This document shows, piece after piece, positions 3,880 to 10,152 of a stretch of DNA of 10,152 nt. The notes under the pieces are model-generated. The model did not search any database. It saw only the letters and a program-made list of their open reading frames with translations, and was not told where the DNA came from. The stretch lies in the IMG/VR virus record IMGVR_UViG_2534681939_000019; one strand, given 5' to 3'. This DNA comes from a virus (lineage: Duplodnaviria > Heunggongvirae > Uroviricota > Caudoviricetes). The stretch's first letter is position 1; each line of letters opens with the position of its first letter. The position numbers and the translations under genes are program-made.

Positions 3880-4001
3880 TAACAAATAATTTTCTGTGTT
3901 TTTTCAGGCTATCCCGTCAGACGGGAAGCCTGTACTGCCGGGGGACGAATGGAAAACTGATGTGTCCGGTAAACTGTGTGTTCTTGTGAACACCATGTTA
4001 C

Positions 4002-4184
4002 TTAATTAATGTAATTCATACCCGAACGCTCTGTTGACAGCCTTCTTCTGCAGGCTTCAATAACCCACGCTGAAAAGTTACCGGAACCTTTATGTTCAAG
4101 GGCGATATTGATCTGTTCAATCATGTGATTGGGGAAACGGATATTGCGGATTGTGGTTCTGCGGGTCCGGTTTTTCGATGACAT
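4002..4184 (-). CDS. Small ribbon-helix-helix-like DNA-binding protein (YlcI/YnfO DUF3950-like)
   Basis: 60-aa minus-strand ORF MSSKNRTRRTTIRNIRFPNHMIEQINIALEHKGSGNFSAWVIEACRRRL...: basic N-terminus, a beta-strand-like RNIRF, then two helices. SD AGAGGAAAG lies just upstream of the ATG on the minus strand. Resemblance to K-12 prophage YlcI/YnfO is from memory. Confidence 0.6.
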   Translation of the reverse strand: MSSKNRTRRTTIRNIRFPNHMIEQINIALEHKGSGNFSAWVIEACRRRLSTERSGMNYIN

Positions 4185-4225
4185 TTTCTTTCCTCTGGTG
4201 ACAAGCTATATGGCGAGGATTTTAC

Positions 4226-4768
4226 ATGGCTGTGCTTCGTACGTTACCGGGCAGAATCAAAACTCTGAACACCCGGCGGATAAATGTCCTGAGGGGGGAA
4301 CAGCGTCGTGTCAGTGGCAGTGCCCGGGTTTCCCTCAAACGTCGTATCTGGCGGAGGGATGCCGGACACTGTTGTCTCTGTAGACGCGTGGTTGACCTTC
4401 GTGACAGTGAACTCGATCACCGCATTGCACTTCAGTTCGGTGGTGGTAATGAGGAGACGAACCTCTGGACCCTCTGTACTGAATGCCATCGCCAGAAGTC
4501 AGCGAGTGAAGCGGCGAGTGGTATGCCTGATCCGACGTTGCCTGAGCTTCCTGATGGCACGCTCAGGGCCGACGGAATCACTCGGCCTGTGACCACGACC
4601 CGGGGGGGGATCATCCGGCGAAAAAAAACGATCGCCCTGGACACCGCGCCCCCTCTCACGCAGAGAAAAAATTCCCGTTTCAGGGCAGTTAACATGTTAA
4701 CTGGCTGCCCGGGCATTTTTGCGGTTTTTATCTTTATTATTCAGTTTGTTGTGCGGAAAAAATGTTAA
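4226..4768 (+). CDS. HNH endonuclease (terminase-associated, HK97 gp74-like) with an unusually long C-terminal tail
   Basis: HNH motif HCCLCRRVVDLRDSELDHRIALQFGGGNEETNLWTLCTECHRQK; SD GAGGA 7 nt before ATG 4226; directly upstream of terS. The last 60-80 codons run through G8 and A8 homopolymers and into the palindrome array, so the true stop is uncertain. Confidence 0.75.
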   Translation: MAVLRTLPGRIKTLNTRRINVLRGEQRRVSGSARVSLKRRIWRRDAGHCCLCRRVVDLRDSELDHRIALQFGGGNEETNLWTLCTECHRQKSASEAASGMPDPTLPELPDGTLRADGITRPVTTTRGGIIRRKKTIALDTAPPLTQRKNSRFRAVNMLTGCPGIFAVFIFIIQFVVRKKC

Positions 4769-4814
4769 CAGGCTTTTTCAGCAAATGTTAACCAGGCAGC
4801 AGTTAACATTTGCG
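4683..4814. repeat. Array of GTTAAC-containing inverted repeats between HNH and terS; candidate cos / terminase recognition region
   Basis: Perfect 18-bp palindrome CAGTTAACATGTTAACTG at 4686-4703; AATGTTAACA at 4761-4770; 12-bp inverted arms GCAAATGTTAAC (4781-4792) and GTTAACATTTGC (4802-4813) around a 9-bp spacer. Five copies of ATGTTAAC-like half-sites lie within about 130 bp. Confidence 0.55.
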
Positions 4815-4883
4815 GCATGAGACGCCGGGAAAAATGGGCTGAACCATACCCGGCTGAGTGCGTTCTGGACCCGGGAGGAGGCT

Positions 4884-5447
4884 GTGCTGACAACGCAAAA
4901 ACGAAAATTTGCGCTGGCGCTCATGTCCGGGAAAAACAAAACAGCGTCAGCCATTGCCGCCGGTTATTCGGCGAAGACCGCCAGGGTTAAAGGCTCGCAG
5001 CTGGCAAAAGATCCTGAGGTGCTTGCGTTTATAGCCCGTAAACAATGCGAGACGGTGGAGGTGGATGAGGTTCCTGTTTACCGGCAGAAAAAATCAGAGC
5101 AGGAGGATAAACCCCGTCGCCGTGAGGCGGCTGCAATACCACAGCCGGACGAAAACAATCTGGAGATGCCACCGTCCGCGGTGATGTCTCCTGGTATTGA
5201 ATATATGGAGGATGGTCTTCCCGATCCGGTGAAAGCCATGGGGCGGATCCTGGTGGAAAACCTCTGCATTGATCCGAAACTGGCACTGGATGCGGCCTGG
5301 CGTCTGGCGCAGTTCACGCACCATAAAAAAGGGGATACCGGGAAAAAATCGGCAAAAGGTGATGCCGCGAAAAAAGCGGCTAACCGTTTTGCGGTGCCAC
5401 CGCCACCCCGACTGGTGGTGAATAACGATAATGAGGGCAACGGATGA
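4884..5447 (+). CDS. terS: Terminase small subunit (Terminase_2-like, N-terminal HTH)
   Basis: MLTTQKRKFALALMSGKNKTASAIAAGYSAKTARVKGSQLAKDPEVLAFI fits the TerS HTH pattern (AGYS.KTA...GS.L). GTG 4884 follows GGGAGGAGG (4873-4881); an in-frame ATG at 4833 is an alternative start without a good SD. Stop overlaps the terL start (ATGA at 5444-5447). Confidence 0.8.
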   Translation: MLTTQKRKFALALMSGKNKTASAIAAGYSAKTARVKGSQLAKDPEVLAFIARKQCETVEVDEVPVYRQKKSEQEDKPRRREAAAIPQPDENNLEMPPSAVMSPGIEYMEDGLPDPVKAMGRILVENLCIDPKLALDAAWRLAQFTHHKKGDTGKKSAKGDAAKKAANRFAVPPPPRLVVNNDNEGNG

Positions 5448-7105
5448 TACCTGTATGGAGCACAGCCTGCCCGGACTGGGCAGAGCGCCTGAAAAAGGGG
5501 CTGTCGATTATTCCGGATCCGATTTATCCGGACGAGGCCGCACATGCCCTGGCGATTTTTAAACAACTGCGGATTGTGGATGCACCTGGTAGCCCTACGT
5601 TCGGGGAGTCCTGTGCACCGTGGGTGTTTGACCTGGTGGCGGCCCTGTTTGGCTCCTACGATGCGCAGACCGGTGTACGCCATATCAAGGAAGTTTTTAT
5701 CCTTATCCCCAAGAAAAACAGCAAGTCCACGCTGGCCGCGGGGATCATGATGACTGCACTGTTACTGAACTGGCGGCAGGCGGCGGGTTACACGATTCTG
5801 GCCCCGACTGTGGAGGTGGCGGCCAACGCCTTCAACCCTGCCCGGGATATGGTACGACGGGACGATGATCTGGATGACCTCTGCCAGGTACAGACCCATA
5901 TCCGGACCATCACCCACCGGGTGACGGACACCACCCTGAAGGTGGTGGCAGCCGATCCGAATACGGTGTCCGGTATCAAGTCCGTGGGTACGCTGATTGA
6001 TGAGTTGTGGCTGTTTGGCAAGCAGTGCAAGGCGGAGGACATGTTACGTGAAGCCATAGGCGGCCTTGCCTCCCGCCCGGAAGGGTTTGTGGTGTATACG
6101 ACCACCCAGTCGAATGAACCGCCCGCCGGGGTGTTCAGACAGAAACTGCAGTACGCCCGGGATGTGCGCGACGGCAAAATTCATGATCCGCACTTTCTGC
6201 CGGTGATATTTGAACACCCTCCTGAAATGGTGGAAAGCGGGGCTAACCTGCTGATGGAAAACCTCGCCATGGTCAATCCGAATCTCGGCTATTCAGTGGA
6301 TGAGGCCTTTCTGTACCGGGAGTACCGTAAAGCCCGGGAAGCCGGTGAAGAGACATTCCGGGGGTTCATGTCAAAACACGCCAATGTGGAAATTGGTCTT
6401 GCCCTGCGCTCTGACCGCTGGGCGGGGGCTGATTTCTGGGAAGAGCAGGGCCGTTGTATCAGCCTGGACGATATCCTGCGTCGTGCTGATGTGGTGACGG
6501 TGGGGATTGACGGCGGAGGGCTGGATGATCTGCTGGGGATGTATGTGATTGGGCGTGACCGGGAGACCCGCGAATGGCTGGGCTGGGGCCATGCCTGGGC
6601 GCATGGAACCGCGGTGGTCAGACGGAAGAGTGAGGCATCCCGTTTTCAGGATTTTGTGGCCTGTGGAGACATGACGATTGTCCGTCGGGTCGGGGATGAC
6701 ACGGCGGAAGTGGCGGAATATGTGCGTCGCATTCATGAGGCTGAGTTACTGGACCATATCGGTATTGACCCGTCAGGTGTGGGGCAGATTCTGGATTCAC
6801 TGGCGGAAGCCGGGATCCCCGACGGAATTGTTGTGGGGATAAGCCAGGGCTGGAAGCTGGGCGGGGCCATTAAAACCACCGAGCGCAAACTGGCTGAGGG
6901 AGTACTGGTGCATGGTGGTCAGCCACTGATGGCCTGGTGCGTTGGCAATGCCCGGGTGGAGCCTAAAGGTAACGCTATCCTTATTACCAAACAGGCCAGC
7001 GGACGGGGGAAAATTGACCCGCTGATGGCGCTCTTCAATGCGGTCTCCCTGATGTCCCTTAACCCGGAACCGAAAAAGAAAGAATATGCGGTTTTTTTCA
7101 TATAA
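5444..7105 (+). CDS. terL: Terminase large subunit (ATPase plus nuclease)
   Basis: 553-aa ORF; P-loop-like LIPKKNSKST near the N-terminus, acidic patches in the ATPase region, C-terminal nuclease region with VTVGIDGGG and DPSG. Translationally coupled to terS. Confidence 0.9.
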   Translation: MIPVWSTACPDWAERLKKGLSIIPDPIYPDEAAHALAIFKQLRIVDAPGSPTFGESCAPWVFDLVAALFGSYDAQTGVRHIKEVFILIPKKNSKSTLAAGIMMTALLLNWRQAAGYTILAPTVEVAANAFNPARDMVRRDDDLDDLCQVQTHIRTITHRVTDTTLKVVAADPNTVSGIKSVGTLIDELWLFGKQCKAEDMLREAIGGLASRPEGFVVYTTTQSNEPPAGVFRQKLQYARDVRDGKIHDPHFLPVIFEHPPEMVESGANLLMENLAMVNPNLGYSVDEAFLYREYRKAREAGEETFRGFMSKHANVEIGLALRSDRWAGADFWEEQGRCISLDDILRRADVVTVGIDGGGLDDLLGMYVIGRDRETREWLGWGHAWAHGTAVVRRKSEASRFQDFVACGDMTIVRRVGDDTAEVAEYVRRIHEAELLDHIGIDPSGVGQILDSLAEAGIPDGIVVGISQGWKLGGAIKTTERKLAEGVLVHGGQPLMAWCVGNARVEPKGNAILITKQASGRGKIDPLMALFNAVSLMSLNPEPKKKEYAVFFI

Positions 7106-7130
7106 CCCTGTTCACACTGTAACCATCACG

Positions 7131-7155
7131 AACCGCTCCGGCGGTTTTTTATTTT
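7131..7155 (+). terminator. Small hairpin plus U-tract between terL and the protease gene (possible attenuator)
   Basis: AACCGC (7131-7136), loop TCCG, GCGGTT (7141-7146), then TTTTATTTT; overlaps the protease SD AGGAGG (7157-7162). Confidence 0.35.
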
Positions 7156-7167
7156 CAGGAGGCTGAT

Positions 7168-7746
7168 GTGACTCTTAAACGGGCCTGTTCCCTGCTGACG
7201 GTGAAATCCTTCAGCGAGGATGAACGGGTGATCACCGGGATTGCGTCAACGCCTTCTCCGGATCGGGATGGTGACATCCTGGAGCCGGAGGGGGCGGAGT
7301 TTGGCTGTGCGATCCCGTTTCTCTGGCAGCATGACTATTCCCGTCCGGTGGGCCAGTGTACGGTACGCCGGGTCAGTGAAGGTCTGGAAATCACGGCAAC
7401 ACTGGTGAAGCCCGTACCGGATATGCCGTCGCAACTGGCTGCCCGGCTGGATGAGGCCTGGGCGGCCATTAAGACCGGGCTGGTCAGGGGGCTGTCCGTG
7501 GGCTTCCGTCCCCATGAATACACCTCTCTGGACGGAGGCGGACTGCATTTTCTGCGCTGGGAACTGATGGAGGTGTCTGCCGTCACCGTGCCCGCGAATG
7601 CGGAATGCACCATCCGGACCATTAAATCTTACGACCGCCCGTTTTCTGCCGCGTCCGGCAACCGGAAACCGGTGGTGAAAATCGCATCTTCTGCCGGCGC
7701 TGCGGCACAGTCAACAACCGCTTTTCATAAGGAAAAGACAGAATGA
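7168..7746 (+). CDS. HK97-family prohead protease (peptidase S78/U35)
   Basis: GTG 7168 with AGGAGG 5 nt upstream; VITGIASTPSPDRDGDILEPEG ... FLWQHD ... GLSVGFRPHEY ... MEVSAVTVPANAECTI is the typical motif order of the HK97 protease family. Confidence 0.85.
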   Translation: MTLKRACSLLTVKSFSEDERVITGIASTPSPDRDGDILEPEGAEFGCAIPFLWQHDYSRPVGQCTVRRVSEGLEITATLVKPVPDMPSQLAARLDEAWAAIKTGLVRGLSVGFRPHEYTSLDGGGLHFLRWELMEVSAVTVPANAECTIRTIKSYDRPFSAASGNRKPVVKIASSAGAAAQSTTAFHKEKTE

Positions 7747-7812
7747 ATATTGGCGAACAGATAAAAGTTTTGAAACAAGCGTGCGGCGCTGGCAGCCTCC
7801 CTTGAGGAGGTC

Positions 7813-9102
7813 ATGACCAAAGCCGCAGAGGAAGGGCGCACGCTGGATGTGGAGGAGGAAGAGCATTACGACAACACCGCAGCGGAAATCCGTCAGGTGG
7901 ATGCGCACCTGAAGCGCCTGCGTGAACTGGAAGCCGGTAAGGCCGCCACGGCGCAGCCGGTGAAACAGGCCGGTAACGGGAATGTGGCCGCGGTGGCTTC
8001 TGCGCCGGTGATCCGTGTGGAGCAGAAACTGGATAAGGGGATTGGCTTCGCCCGCTTTGCCAAATCGCTGGCTGCGGCTAAAGGCGTCCGATCTGAAGCC
8101 CTGGAAGTGGCCCGTCGTCAGTATCCGGATGACAGTCGTCTGCATCATGTCCTGAAATCGGCAGTGGGCGCAGGGACCACCACGGATCCACAGTGGGCAG
8201 GCAGCCTGTCTGAATATCAGGAATACGCACAGGACTTTATTGATTACCTGCGTCCGCAGACCATTATCGGGCGATTTGGTCAGGGCGGGATCCCTGCACT
8301 TCGTCAGGTGCCATTCAATATCCGCGTGCACGCCCAGGTGTCCGGCGGTGCTGCCGGCTGGGTGGGGGAGGGTAAGGCAAAACCCCTGACGAAGTTTGAT
8401 TTTGAATCCATCACCTTCAGTCATGCGAAGGTGTCGGCCATTGCGGTACTGACGGAAGAACTGATCCGCTTTTCCAGTCCGGCAGCTGATGCACTGGTCC
8501 GTAATGCGCTGGCAGAAGCGGTGGTGGCGCGTCTGGACACAGACTTTGTGGACCCGAAAAAAGCTGCAGTGGCAGATGTCTCCCCGGCGTCCATCACCCA
8601 TGATGTGAAGGGCACGGCATCAACCGGTAACCCGGATGCGGATGCCGAGGCCGCGTTTGGCCAGTTTGTGACGGCAAATCTGCAGCCCACCGGTGCTGTC
8701 TGGCTGATGTCCAGCACCAATGCCCTGGCACTGTCCATGCGTAAAAATGCGCTGGGTCAGAAGGAATATCCGGACATGACCCTGCTGGGCGGGATCTTTC
8801 AGGGGCTTCCGGTGATTGTCTCCCAGTATGTGGGTGACCAGCTGGTGCTGGTGAATGCCCCGGATATTTATCTGGCGGATGACGGCGGCGTGGCAGTGGA
8901 TATGTCCCGCGAAGCATCACTGGAAATGCAGTCTGAGCCGACCGGCGACAGTACCACGCCGTCCCCGGTGGAGCTGGTTTCCATGTTCCAGACAGGCAGC
9001 GTGGCCATCCGTGCGGAGCGCTGGATCAACTGGCGTCGTCGCCGTACTGCGGCGGTGGCGGTGATCACCGGAGTGAACTACGGCAGTGCGTCCGGCGGCT
9101 GA
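7813..9102 (+). CDS. HK97-fold major capsid protein; the true N-terminus probably starts at ATG 7743 in another frame (apparent frameshift)
   Basis: 429-aa ORF with a coiled-coil-like N-terminal delta region (EIRQVDAHLKRLRELEAG) and Gly/Ala-rich capsid body, placed directly after the protease. ATG 7743 overlaps the protease stop (ATGA) and encodes MNIGEQIKVLKQ before a frame change near 7773-7776. Confidence 0.85.
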   Translation: MTKAAEEGRTLDVEEEEHYDNTAAEIRQVDAHLKRLRELEAGKAATAQPVKQAGNGNVAAVASAPVIRVEQKLDKGIGFARFAKSLAAAKGVRSEALEVARRQYPDDSRLHHVLKSAVGAGTTTDPQWAGSLSEYQEYAQDFIDYLRPQTIIGRFGQGGIPALRQVPFNIRVHAQVSGGAAGWVGEGKAKPLTKFDFESITFSHAKVSAIAVLTEELIRFSSPAADALVRNALAEAVVARLDTDFVDPKKAAVADVSPASITHDVKGTASTGNPDADAEAAFGQFVTANLQPTGAVWLMSSTNALALSMRKNALGQKEYPDMTLLGGIFQGLPVIVSQYVGDQLVLVNAPDIYLADDGGVAVDMSREASLEMQSEPTGDSTTPSPVELVSMFQTGSVAIRAERWINWRRRRTAAVAVITGVNYGSASGG

Positions 9103-9116
9103 GTCTGATAAGGAGG

Positions 9117-9138
9117 ACGGGAGGCGTGCGCCTCCCGT
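9117..9138 (+). other. GC-rich 22-bp palindrome / stem-loop immediately downstream of the major capsid gene
   Basis: ACGGGAGGCG (9117-9126) and CGCCTCCCGT (9129-9138) are perfect reverse complements around a 2-nt centre; no U-tract follows. Confidence 0.45.
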
Positions 9139-9146
9139 AACAGGTT

Positions 9147-9368
9147 ATGGCAAAGATCCGATATCTGCAGGGCACGCATGATGCCCGGCCCGGGGATATC
9201 CGGGATGTCGCACAGCCGTGTGCGGAGGTGCTGGTTCGCCTGAGGAAGGCGGAGTACATCACAGCGCGACGTCCGGCGGGTCAGAAAAAGAAACATGATG
9301 CGGAGCATAGCGAATGTGGAACTTTTTGCGACGAACCCGAAAAAACCAGAAATCAGGACGTGATGTAA
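9147..9368 (+). CDS. Hypothetical small protein (73 aa) between capsid and portal genes
   Basis: Track ORF MAKIRYLQGTHDARPGDIRDVAQPCAEVLVRLRKAEYI...; weak SD; overlaps the predicted portal start by about 55 nt, so it may be shorter or not real. Confidence 0.35.
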   Translation: MAKIRYLQGTHDARPGDIRDVAQPCAEVLVRLRKAEYITARRPAGQKKKHDAEHSECGTFCDEPEKTRNQDVM

Positions 9369-10152
9369 AAGAGGCGGGCTGGACCAGCCTGTTTCAGGCG
9401 GTGGCTGAGCCCTTTGCCGGCGCCTGGCAGCAGGGTGTGAAAGCCGATCCGGAAAGTGTCCTCTCCTTTCATGCGGTGTTTGCATGCATTTCGCTGATAT
9501 CCCAGGATATCGCCAAAATGCGGCTGCGTCTTATGCAGACGGATGCGCATGGGATACGCAGGGAAACGCGCCGGGGGGATATTGCCCGCCTCTGTCGTCG
9601 TCCCAACGCCCAGCAGAACCGCATCCAGTTTTTTGAACTGTGGCTGAACGCCAAACTGCGTCATGGCAATACGGTGGTGCTGAAAATCCGTAATGCCCGG
9701 GGGCAGATCAAAGAACTGCGTATTCTGGACTGGAGCCGGGTTGAACCTCTGGTGGCGGATGACGGCGAGGTGTTCTACCGCATCACACCGGACCGGAACT
9801 GCGGGATCACGGAGGCGGTGACGGTGCCTGCCAGGGAAGTGATCCACGACCGGTTTAACTGTTTTTTTCATCCGCTTATAGGACTGCCGCCGGTGTATGC
9901 CGCCGGGCTGGCGGCCACGCAGGGGCATCATATTCAGGAAAATTCGACGTCTTTTTTCAGAAATGGCGGCAGGCCGTCCGGGGTGATTGAGATCCCCGGC
10001 AGTATTACGGAAGAAAATGCGAAAAAACTGAAGAGCAACTGGGACAGCGGGTATACAGGCGAAAATGCGGGGAAAACGGCCATTCTGAGCAACGGGGCAA
10101 AATACAACCCCACGACGTTTTCACCTGTGGATGCGCAGACGGTGGAACAACT
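9314..10152 (+). CDS. Portal protein (HK97-family), 5' part; continues beyond the window end
   Basis: Frame is open from ATG 9314 to the window end with no stop: MWNFLRRTRKNQKSGRDVKEAGWTSLFQ ... SFHAVFACISLISQDIAKMRLRL ... FFRNGGRPSGVIEIPGSITEENAKKLKSNWDSGYTGENAGKTAILSNGAKYNPTTFSPVDAQTVEQ. The FRNGxRPSG and ENAGK blocks are characteristic of portal proteins. Confidence 0.85.
   Translation, partial: MWNFLRRTRKNQKSGRDVKEAGWTSLFQAVAEPFAGAWQQGVKADPESVLSFHAVFACISLISQDIAKMRLRLMQTDAHGIRRETRRGDIARLCRRPNAQQNRIQFFELWLNAKLRHGNTVVLKIRNARGQIKELRILDWSRVEPLVADDGEVFYRITPDRNCGITEAVTVPAREVIHDRFNCFFHPLIGLPPVYAAGLAATQGHHIQENSTSFFRNGGRPSGVIEIPGSITEENAKKLKSNWDSGYTGENAGKTAILSNGAKYNPTTFSPVDAQTVEQ

Follow-up and report, generated by a model that had tools for sequence, protein, structure and literature searches.

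The head genes of the window, the 10,152-nt stretch of DNA analysed here, are arranged on the + strand in the order terminase small subunit (TerS), terminase large subunit (TerL), S78 protease, HK97-type capsid, a 73-aa ORF and portal. We found that this order is a distinct and deeply conserved HK97-like head arrangement and that it involves no local rearrangement; the canonical HK97-like order of TerL, portal, protease and capsid is absent here. The position of protease and capsid ahead of the portal, which had been pointed out in the earlier note, is real, and the identity of every gene was confirmed by Pfam and PHROGs. The whole window is the complete contig AIFJ01000017.1 of the draft assembly GCA_000249355.2, and it very probably represents the late region, from lysis to head genes, of a Pankowvirus / BP-4795-type prophage, a long-tailed lambdoid element of E. 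coli in which the HK97 plan of the head module occurs in a conserved variant form. The features are as follows.

4226..4768, + strand: HNH endonuclease, before the terminase genes (PF01844, phrog_589; annotation of relatives)
4884..5447, + strand: TerS (PF03592; phrog_641, E 8e-68)
5444..7105, + strand: TerL (PF03354 and PF20441; phrog_9)
7130..7157, + strand: terminator-like GC hairpin with a T run, between TerL and the protease-capsid gene (consensus scan; folds of orthologous intergenic regions)
7168..7746, + strand: S78 prohead protease domain (PF04586, Peptidase_S78; positions 7-190 of 626 in phrog_617)
7729..7745, + strand: internal Shine-Dalgarno (SD) AAGGA (7729-7733) and ATG (7743-7745), the predicted start of a free capsid protein (alignment, anti-SD pairing)
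7738..7772, + strand: three 1-nt deletions, after 7738, 7761 and 7772 (alignments to relatives)
7813..9102, + strand: HK97-family major capsid protein ORF in the form found in the window (PF05065; phrog_617 positions 221-626)
9110..9149, + strand: AAGGAGG (9110-9116), GC hairpin (9117-9138) and ATG of the small ORF (9147-9149), just past the capsid stop codon (folds)
9147..9368, + strand: small conserved protein of 73 aa (phrog_829, E 5e-37)
9314..10152, + strand: HK97-family portal, first 279 codons, cut by the contig end (PF04860, E 9e-54; phrog_2271)

The S78 protease family was recognised from residues 49-152 of the 7168-7746 product (PF04586, E 3.6e-9), and the capsid ORF was assigned to the HK97 family by PF05065 (E 4e-14) and also by phrog_617 and phrog_10. 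The 279 residues of the portal that are present are likewise of the HK97 family. The HNH gene is 366 nt long in the relatives, and its ORF is extended to 4768 here because 1-nt insertions at 4583, 4596 and 4602 abolish the usual stop. No scaffold ORF was found between TerL and portal among the ORFs of the window, and an Rfam scan of the window returned zero family matches.

Conservation of the capsid-before-portal order

Comparison with 5,426 complete E. coli genomes revealed that the best match was O157:H7 493/89, with 98.6% identity across all 10,152 nt. In 1,038 of these genomes, at least 80% of the window was covered at a single collinear place each. Additionally, 91 phage records, YYZ-2008, BP-4795, 2851 and 1717 among them, covered at least 80% and were collinear, the E. 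coli genomes and phages together spanning an identity range of 95-99%. In particular, phage YYZ-2008 matched positions 4200-10152 (5,953 nt) in one piece with 97.1% identity, and its TerL and portal were 98% and 98.6% identical to those of the window. Identity and collinearity with the Pankowvirus-type late region therefore extend from the HNH gene to the portal.

The annotated relatives contain, in order, HNH, TerS, TerL, a 645-aa "major capsid protein" with both PF04586 and PF05065, a 73-aa hypothetical protein and the portal, followed by Ad1, head closure, gp10-like and tail terminator genes. The identical order was present in Salmonella and Serratia prophages, as well as in Rhizobium phage RHph_X2_26, Pseudomonas phage IME307, Burkholderia phage vB_FUBS1 and Moraxella phage Mcat7. 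All of the 120 matches listed in a homologous-protein search showed at least 73% identity, and distant synteny was taken from the phage collection and a scan of genome contigs. The resulting diverse set consisted of 80 species-representative genome loci of the protease-capsid gene. TerL was directly upstream in 75 of the 75 loci where it was found, and the portal was downstream on the same strand in 75/75; at two loci (L045 and L062) the portal was not detected in the 8 kb downstream. Where both genes were found, TerL was upstream and the portal downstream in every case (70/70), the canonical order occurring in none (0/70), and the window shows the same placement around its own protease-capsid gene of the phrog_617 lineage. 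Portal identity tracked capsid identity across the lineages from Salmonella to Moraxella. A portal-protease-capsid fusion, which would be a sign of the canonical order, was sought among the long homologues and was not found; AAA ATPase or ClpP domains made up their N-terminal extensions.

The small ORF was always located between capsid and portal, and its last 55 nt overlap the start of the portal gene. Positional orthologues were present in seven lineages, and an iterated HMM detected the phrog_829-type family in at least 62 of 75 loci, while a comparison of the small ORF with Pfam gave no match. A resemblance to the N-terminal domain of ribosomal protein bL9, seen with a profile against PDB sequences, was too weak to use (E 0.12-0.19). 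The portal has 861 codons in the E. coli relatives; for an extra protein after it, the phrog_1289 label "portal protein" was set aside as given by association only.

The order had previously been regarded as unusual, with a distinct module arrangement or a rearrangement offered as explanations. Our synteny comparison revealed that close relatives carry it as a common conserved arrangement, which makes it unremarkable, and the first explanation holds in view of this conservation. A recent rearrangement in the present genome, or an assembly mis-join at 7105-7168 or 9102-9314, has virtually no chance of being correct: the window is a short draft contig with many small errors and its order is unlike that of HK97, but either event is excluded because both junctions are unbroken and collinear in the 1,038 complete E. 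coli genomes and 91 phage records, and the identical order recurs in all 70 distant loci. Relative to HK97, the portal gene and the protease-capsid block have very probably exchanged places in an ancestor of a large phage and prophage lineage reaching well past the enterobacteria, rather than in any event of the present genome.

The protease-capsid gene and its break in the contig

In every close relative, protease and capsid form one fused gene of 645 aa. As evident from alignment to two of the relatives (L001 and L002), the protease ORF of the window corresponds to the N-terminal 192 codons of this 645-codon gene. The earlier note had treated protease and capsid as genes in their own right; the families were right, but the two ORFs (7168-7746 and 7813-9102) are halves of a single fused gene that is broken in the contig. 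The deletions at 7738, 7761 and 7772, each of which shortens a homopolymer run of the reference (CC, TT and AAAA, respectively), split the gene and frameshift the capsid frame that starts at 7743. In particular, the protease ORF stops at the TGA at 7744-7746 because of the deletion at 7738. The capsid ORF at 7813-9102, whose first codon served as the start in the earlier note, opens with an internal Met and is missing the initial 23 residues of the delta/scaffold-like region at the N-terminus; the true capsid start is the ATG upstream at 7743-7745. We judge the missing single gene to be a defect or error of the present contig and not a different architecture.

The fusion was continuous in most of the approximately 130 full-length representatives. 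A stop between protease and capsid was present in the Burkholderia and Moraxella phages and at loci L054, L056, L074, L086 and L092, so that fusion is not obligatory.

Relative to the best relative, the window carries 21 one-base indels that break several genes, including the holin, lysozyme, Rz and the end of the HNH gene. They mostly lengthen or shorten short runs of identical bases, they include five triplet clusters of the same sign (P < 1e-5), and substitutions were not enriched around them. Besides the cluster at 7738-7772, these lie at 2399-2417, 2695-2783, 3973-4008 and 4583-4602. A reading of the triplets as compensated natural frameshifts was rejected as the main explanation because stop codons occur within the shifted stretches, several genes remain disrupted, and no other genome shared any of the indels checked. 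From the single-base, short-run context in a draft contig, the three deletions in the fusion gene are most likely errors in the draft assembly of a multi-copy prophage region.

It is possible, although we consider it rather unlikely, that the split is real biology, either because this prophage copy is defective and decaying or because its genes are naturally unfused, as in the Moraxella and Burkholderia phages. With the first deletion alone, stop and start overlap as ATGA (7743-7746), the exact configuration of Moraxella phage Mcat7 (5597/5600), EHEC-type E. coli hold several copies of the module (up to 7 places per genome), some of them annotated as frameshifted, and the disrupted holin, lysozyme, Rz and HNH genes are compatible with decay. 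However, the deletions at 7761 and 7772 frameshift the capsid frame from 7743, and since no intact capsid protein is then encoded, the window does not hold a working unfused variant. The 1,249 complete E. coli genomes compared contain 2,923 homologous places, and none of the three deletions was found at any of them. Single-base triplets of the same sign without enrichment of substitutions are also more readily explained by a collapsed repeat with read or consensus errors than by natural decay.

A predicted internal start and the flanking hairpins

In the window, the junction between protease and capsid carries both an SD and a start codon, and every fused relative examined had the same pair. 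In the Burkholderia and Moraxella phages, where the capsid gene is separate, its start Met lines up with the junction Met. The capsid Pfam domain begins about 170-190 residues past the junction Met. A Met was found within ±4 residues of the junction in 118 of 128 diverse representatives, and an ATG at the junction in 58 of 65 loci. Anti-SD pairing was markedly stronger there, with a median dG of -5.8 kcal/mol compared with -2.5 kcal/mol at 844 control internal ATGs (p = 5e-26).

These sequence signals suggest that translation also begins internally and gives a free capsid protein. One ORF would then yield two products: a minor protease-capsid fusion, which would co-assemble and bring the protease into the procapsid, and an abundant free capsid protein initiated at the internal SD and ATG. 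The long fusion ORF of the annotations may simply reflect gene callers choosing the longest ORF.

Alternatively, the ORF could yield the fusion protein only, with the protease freeing mature capsid by self-cleavage and the junction ATG and SD left unused. After assembly, HK97-type proteases cut the delta domain from the N-terminus of the capsid protein, and a fusion could be resolved at that step as well; the continuity of the ORF in most full-length representatives is also in keeping with it. We nevertheless find this improbable. It implies one protease per capsid subunit, which to our knowledge is unlike any studied HK97-like system, and it leaves unexplained a strong SD and start codon exactly where separate capsid genes begin, amid a freely varying linker.

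Hairpins were found on both sides of the protease-capsid gene. The position of the hairpin before the protease is conserved among the E. coli, Salmonella, Serratia and Pseudomonas relatives although its sequence is not; apart from HK97, only enterobacterial and Pseudomonas relatives showed this hairpin. The HK97 annotation places a putative terminator at the equivalent position before gp4, and putative terminators bracket gp4-gp5. The hairpin after the capsid gene had a folding energy of -19.5 kcal/mol for a 50-nt segment, and across 73 loci, the 60 nt after the capsid stop showed more structure than coding controls did (p = 1e-17). The layout of GGAGG, hairpin and ATG recurs in Enterobacterales. 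This second hairpin would stabilise or attenuate the message, so that less portal and neck protein would be made.

Relation to known systems and significance

The window is most similar to Pankowvirus and related Stx-converting or lambdoid phages (YYZ-2008, 2851, 1717, BP-4795 and JLK-2012), which share its gene order and intergenic regions with 95-97% nucleotide identity from the HNH gene to the portal; in the closest E. coli genome, the downstream neck and tail genes are also the same as in these phages. The differences lie in the private deletions that split the 645-codon gene and in the 1-nt indels of the holin, lysozyme, Rz and HNH end.

Comparison of the module with HK97 revealed a generally similar plan. 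Both have an HNH-associated terminase, a PF04860 portal (about 27% identity to HK97 gp3), an S78 protease, a PF05065 capsid apparently without a separate scaffold gene, the neck genes Ad1, Hc1, gp10-like and terminator, and hairpins or terminators that flank the protease-capsid pair. In HK97 (gp1-gp5), however, the order is TerS, TerL, portal, protease and major capsid protein, whereas the portal follows the capsid here. Also unlike HK97, the protease is fused to the capsid in most members of the lineage, a further small conserved gene separates capsid from portal, and the E. coli portal of this lineage has a C-terminal extension of ~410 aa.

A nested arrangement is familiar from lambda C/Nu3, P2 gpO and Mu I/Z, in which the protease occupies the N-terminal part of one frame and an assembly domain the C-terminal part, the latter also being made alone from an internal in-frame start with its own RBS. 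Here, the nested product would be the capsid itself, with a delta-like N-terminal region, and not a scaffold; the protease is of the S78 type and not S49/ClpP-like, and two-product expression is predicted from sequence signals. The term "major capsid and protease fusion protein" is already used in annotation for actinobacteriophage clusters AN, AU, AW and EE, for example in PMC9671004 and PMC6606914. Those phages share the idea of a protease-capsid fusion but differ in hosts and sequence families.

The layout is already known, resting on public genome annotation and not on published analysis. It has been visible for years in the genomes of BP-4795, 1717, YYZ-2008 and 2851, now in or near the genus Pankowvirus, and about one in five complete E. 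coli genomes contain it. As a discovery it carries little weight. A search of full-text literature, including the Virfam classification (PMC4362835) and the papers on MD8 (PMC8508860), Ab31 (PMC3974807) and O145 Stx phages (PMC11333237), found no explicit treatment of the order or of a nested capsid start. We tentatively propose, with considerable doubt, that these phages may form a cross-phylum lineage with a fixed layout (protease-capsid cassette, small conserved protein, portal) and a two-product nested ORF whose fusion product would package the protease, both features being apparently undescribed.

For annotators, the order is not a flag of mis-assembly, and the two ORFs of this contig should not be called separate intact genes. 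Whether the order of head genes has consequences, and by what route HK97-like phages bring in their protease, are questions for which this lineage is a natural test case; the conserved junction start yields a simple prediction that inducible Stx phages would allow one to check.

Gene order and source of the window

The window's ORFs, searched for known domains, make up a phage late region with these genes:

upstream genes, + strand, holin, lysozyme, Ant-like antirepressor and Rz
from 4226, + strand, HNH endonuclease, the last of the upstream genes
4884-5447, + strand, TerS
5444-7105, + strand, TerL
7168-7746, + strand, S78 prohead protease ORF
7813-9102, + strand, HK97-family capsid ORF
9147-9368, + strand, 73-aa ORF (phrog_829)
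9314 to past the window end, + strand, portal gene (PF04860)

The gene calls and order proposed in the earlier note were thereby confirmed, as was the difference from HK97, which has the order TerS, TerL, portal, protease and capsid. Upon comparison with HK97, the protease-capsid block was found to have changed places with the portal gene, whereas the region downstream was collinear (Ad1, Hc1, gp10-like, terminator and tail).

The window was the entire 10,152-bp contig AIFJ01000017.1 of the NCBI draft assembly GCA_000249355.2, the sole public contig with the exact protease ORF. The segment 4200-10152 was covered to 80% or more by 91 phage records, at 90-97% identity; the top match was YYZ-2008 (genus Pankowvirus, 97.1%), and the others included 2851, 1717, BP-4795, JLK-2012 and many Stx1a, Stx2a and Stx2c phages. 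They belong to the long-tailed Stx/lambdoid phages, which have been studied extensively (PMC11333237). Of the 5,426 complete E. coli genomes, 1,038 carried 80% or more of the window collinearly at a single site, with O157:H7 strain 493/89 as the best match (98.6%). Because 7105-7168 and 9102-9314 were unbroken in more than 1,000 independent finished genomes, an assembly mis-join at either junction was excluded, as was a rearrangement private to the window, which the note had offered as one explanation.

The protease-capsid fusion and the single-base indels

In YYZ-2008, strain 493/89 and all close relatives, protease and capsid formed a single 645-codon ORF with PF04586 in the N-terminal and PF05065 in the C-terminal part; PHROG family 617 is this fusion. 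The two ORFs described previously were thus both present in the window, but they correspond to one fused ORF in relatives, split here by single-base deletions after 7738, 7761 and 7772. Together, the three deletions regain the original frame, and two ORFs appear because the frame-shifted stretch holds stops. The Met at which the capsid ORF begins (7813) is internal. Capsid natively starts at the ATG at 7743-7745, placed out of frame by the deletions at 7761 and 7772. We examined 1,249 complete E. coli genomes with 2,923 homologous places, none of which shared the three deletions; the best match to 7690-7840 was 96.8% over a 154-nt span. Further fusions were observed among protein homologues from the representative search (P0123, P0132 and P0263): two of about 1,090 aa carried an N-terminal AAA ATPase ahead of the protease-capsid fusion, and in the third a related capsid protein was joined to a ClpP protease instead of S78.

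Compared with its best relative among complete genomes, the window contained 121 substitutions and 21 one-base indels (556, 1538, 2399-2417, 2596, 2695-2783, 3853, 3973-4008, 4583-4602, 7144 and 7738-7772), which hit the holin, lysozyme and Rz genes, the HNH stop and the protease-capsid gene. Most were short runs of identical bases made longer or shorter, and no substitution enrichment was seen near them. The indels formed five same-sign clusters of three within 40 nt, one with a fourth indel 68 nt away; random placement (100,000 trials) never gave more than three same-sign triplet clusters. A related genome can carry as many as seven copies of the junction segment, and the window ends cut two genes (the portal gene and an upstream esterase-like gene), as is common where a multi-copy prophage repeat has been collapsed. 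Since the contig is a short draft contig from such a multi-copy prophage region, the indels are probably consensus errors of the draft assembly, a reading that leaves the triplet pattern unaccounted for; real decay of a defective prophage copy is a less likely explanation.

Conservation of the gene order across lineages

Salmonella and Serratia prophages (capsids 74-77% identical) had the order HNH, TerS, TerL, protease-capsid fusion and portal, followed by a 300-347-aa unknown protein, Ad1 connector, head closure, gp10-like and tail completion genes. The window's order was also found in Rhizobium phage RHph_X2_26 and Pseudomonas phage IME307 (48%, fused) and in Burkholderia phage vB_FUBS1 and Moraxella phage Mcat7 (36-45%, protease and capsid separate), both of the latter with a small ORF ahead of the portal. 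One genome per species was scanned, which yielded 80 loci whose fusion homologue had 35-76% identity. They came from Gamma-, Beta- and Alphaproteobacteria, and some lay in metagenome bins labeled Flavobacteriaceae, Clostridia, Actinobacteria, Acidobacteria, Binatia, Hydrogenedentota and Phycisphaerae. In profile searches of locus ORFs, TerL, where found, was directly upstream of the fusion (75/75), and the portal, where found, was downstream on the same strand (75/75); all 70 loci with both had the window-type order, and none had the canonical order. Two alphaproteobacterial loci (L045 and L062) had TerL and the fusion with no portal detected within 8 kb downstream; these may be degraded prophages or carry a divergent portal. 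The portals of canonical-order HK97, SfI and phi105 were just 22-30% identical. Given the uniform order and these distant portals, the arrangement is an ancient trait that has become fixed in a large lineage. A distinct module arrangement, as the earlier note had suggested, is therefore upheld, and its conservation among relatives makes the order itself unremarkable by the note's own standard.

Portal identity to E. coli dropped in parallel with capsid identity (38-48%), and TerL in some relatives was unrelated to E. coli TerL; protease, capsid, small ORF and portal are thus a co-inherited block, and terminases are exchanged. The Rhizobium and Burkholderia TerL (L007 and L009) had no detectable similarity to that of E. 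coli (L001), although protease, capsid and portal were 38-48% identical, so terminase exchange takes place at the TerL/protease boundary in the fusion lineage.

The E. coli portal gene (L001, 11116-13701) has 861 codons, comprising a portal of about 450 aa and a C-terminal part of about 410 aa (phrog_1289) with weak, sub-threshold Pfam matches. This part was a separate gene in Salmonella, Serratia, Pseudomonas and Rhizobium relatives and absent from the Burkholderia and Moraxella phages; portal regions in relatives lay at 10140-12535 (L003), 10142-12390 (L005), 7319-10133 (L007) and 7502-9884 (L008). The copy of strain 493/89 carries a frameshift annotation.

By iterated HMM over the capsid-portal gaps (L003-L010 and L014-L093), a member of the small-ORF family (window 9147-9368) occupied this gap in at least 62 of 75 loci. 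Its members share a conserved core of about 40 aa, many with a C-terminal Y-[KR]-R-[RK]-D-[ML] motif, and its profile gave only weak matches, to the ribosomal protein bL9 N-terminal domain (E 0.12). The capsid-portal gap held 1.3-4 kb of extra DNA at L031, L042, L046, L048, L075 and L007, such as an SGNH hydrolase in RHph_X2_26, which suggests a tolerated insertion slot.

Hairpins and the putative start at the fusion junction

HK97 has annotated putative terminators directly before gp4 and directly after gp5, matched in the window by a terminator-like hairpin and T run between TerL and protease (7130-7157) and a GC hairpin directly past the capsid stop (9117-9138). Salmonella, Serratia and Pseudomonas relatives also had the upstream hairpin, with stems of different sequence; many alphaproteobacterial loci had a TerL-protease gap of just 10-25 nt, with no space for it. 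The downstream hairpin is general across loci: the 60 nt past the capsid stop had a median of -24.4 kcal/mol, compared with -17.6 for within-ORF windows (73 loci, p = 1e-17). Within 9110-9149, the strong AAGGAGG Shine-Dalgarno of the small ORF is 5' of the GC hairpin and the ATG is 7-9 nt 3' of it, so that only the folded hairpin is predicted to place them at working distance. This layout was repeated with different stems in Enterobacterales (L003 9935-9975, L005 9938-9974, L014-L022 and L024); in Burkholderia, Moraxella and Pseudomonas phages, the Shine-Dalgarno was 3' of the hairpin.

Every fused gene examined had a Met at the start position of the separate capsid genes of Burkholderia and Moraxella phages, with AAGGA, AAGGAG or AGGAGG 6-10 nt ahead and variable linker sequence around it. 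Each of the 113 full-length enterobacterial homologues kept this Met. Among 128 representatives of clusters at 50% identity, 118 had a Met within 4 residues of the junction, and several others had Val there. At the genome loci, the junction codon was ATG in 58 of 65 and GTG or TTG in 5 more. Predicted pairing with the 16S rRNA 3' end had a median of -5.8 kcal/mol at the junction versus -2.5 at the 844 further in-frame internal ATGs used for comparison (p = 5e-26).

The order can be read directly from public annotation, both of numerous named phages and of about one-fifth of complete E. coli genomes; it is already known and as a finding is of low interest. Literature searches found no published statement of the lineage-wide order rule or the nested start, and we therefore attach to the two together, tentatively, a modest residual novelty.

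From the conserved junction start, we infer that one ORF may give two products, the protease-capsid fusion and a free capsid protein from the internal start. Lambda C/Nu3 follows a parallel logic. The fusion protein would carry the protease into the procapsid, and the hairpin that follows capsid would tilt the balance of messages towards this gene and away from the portal and neck genes.
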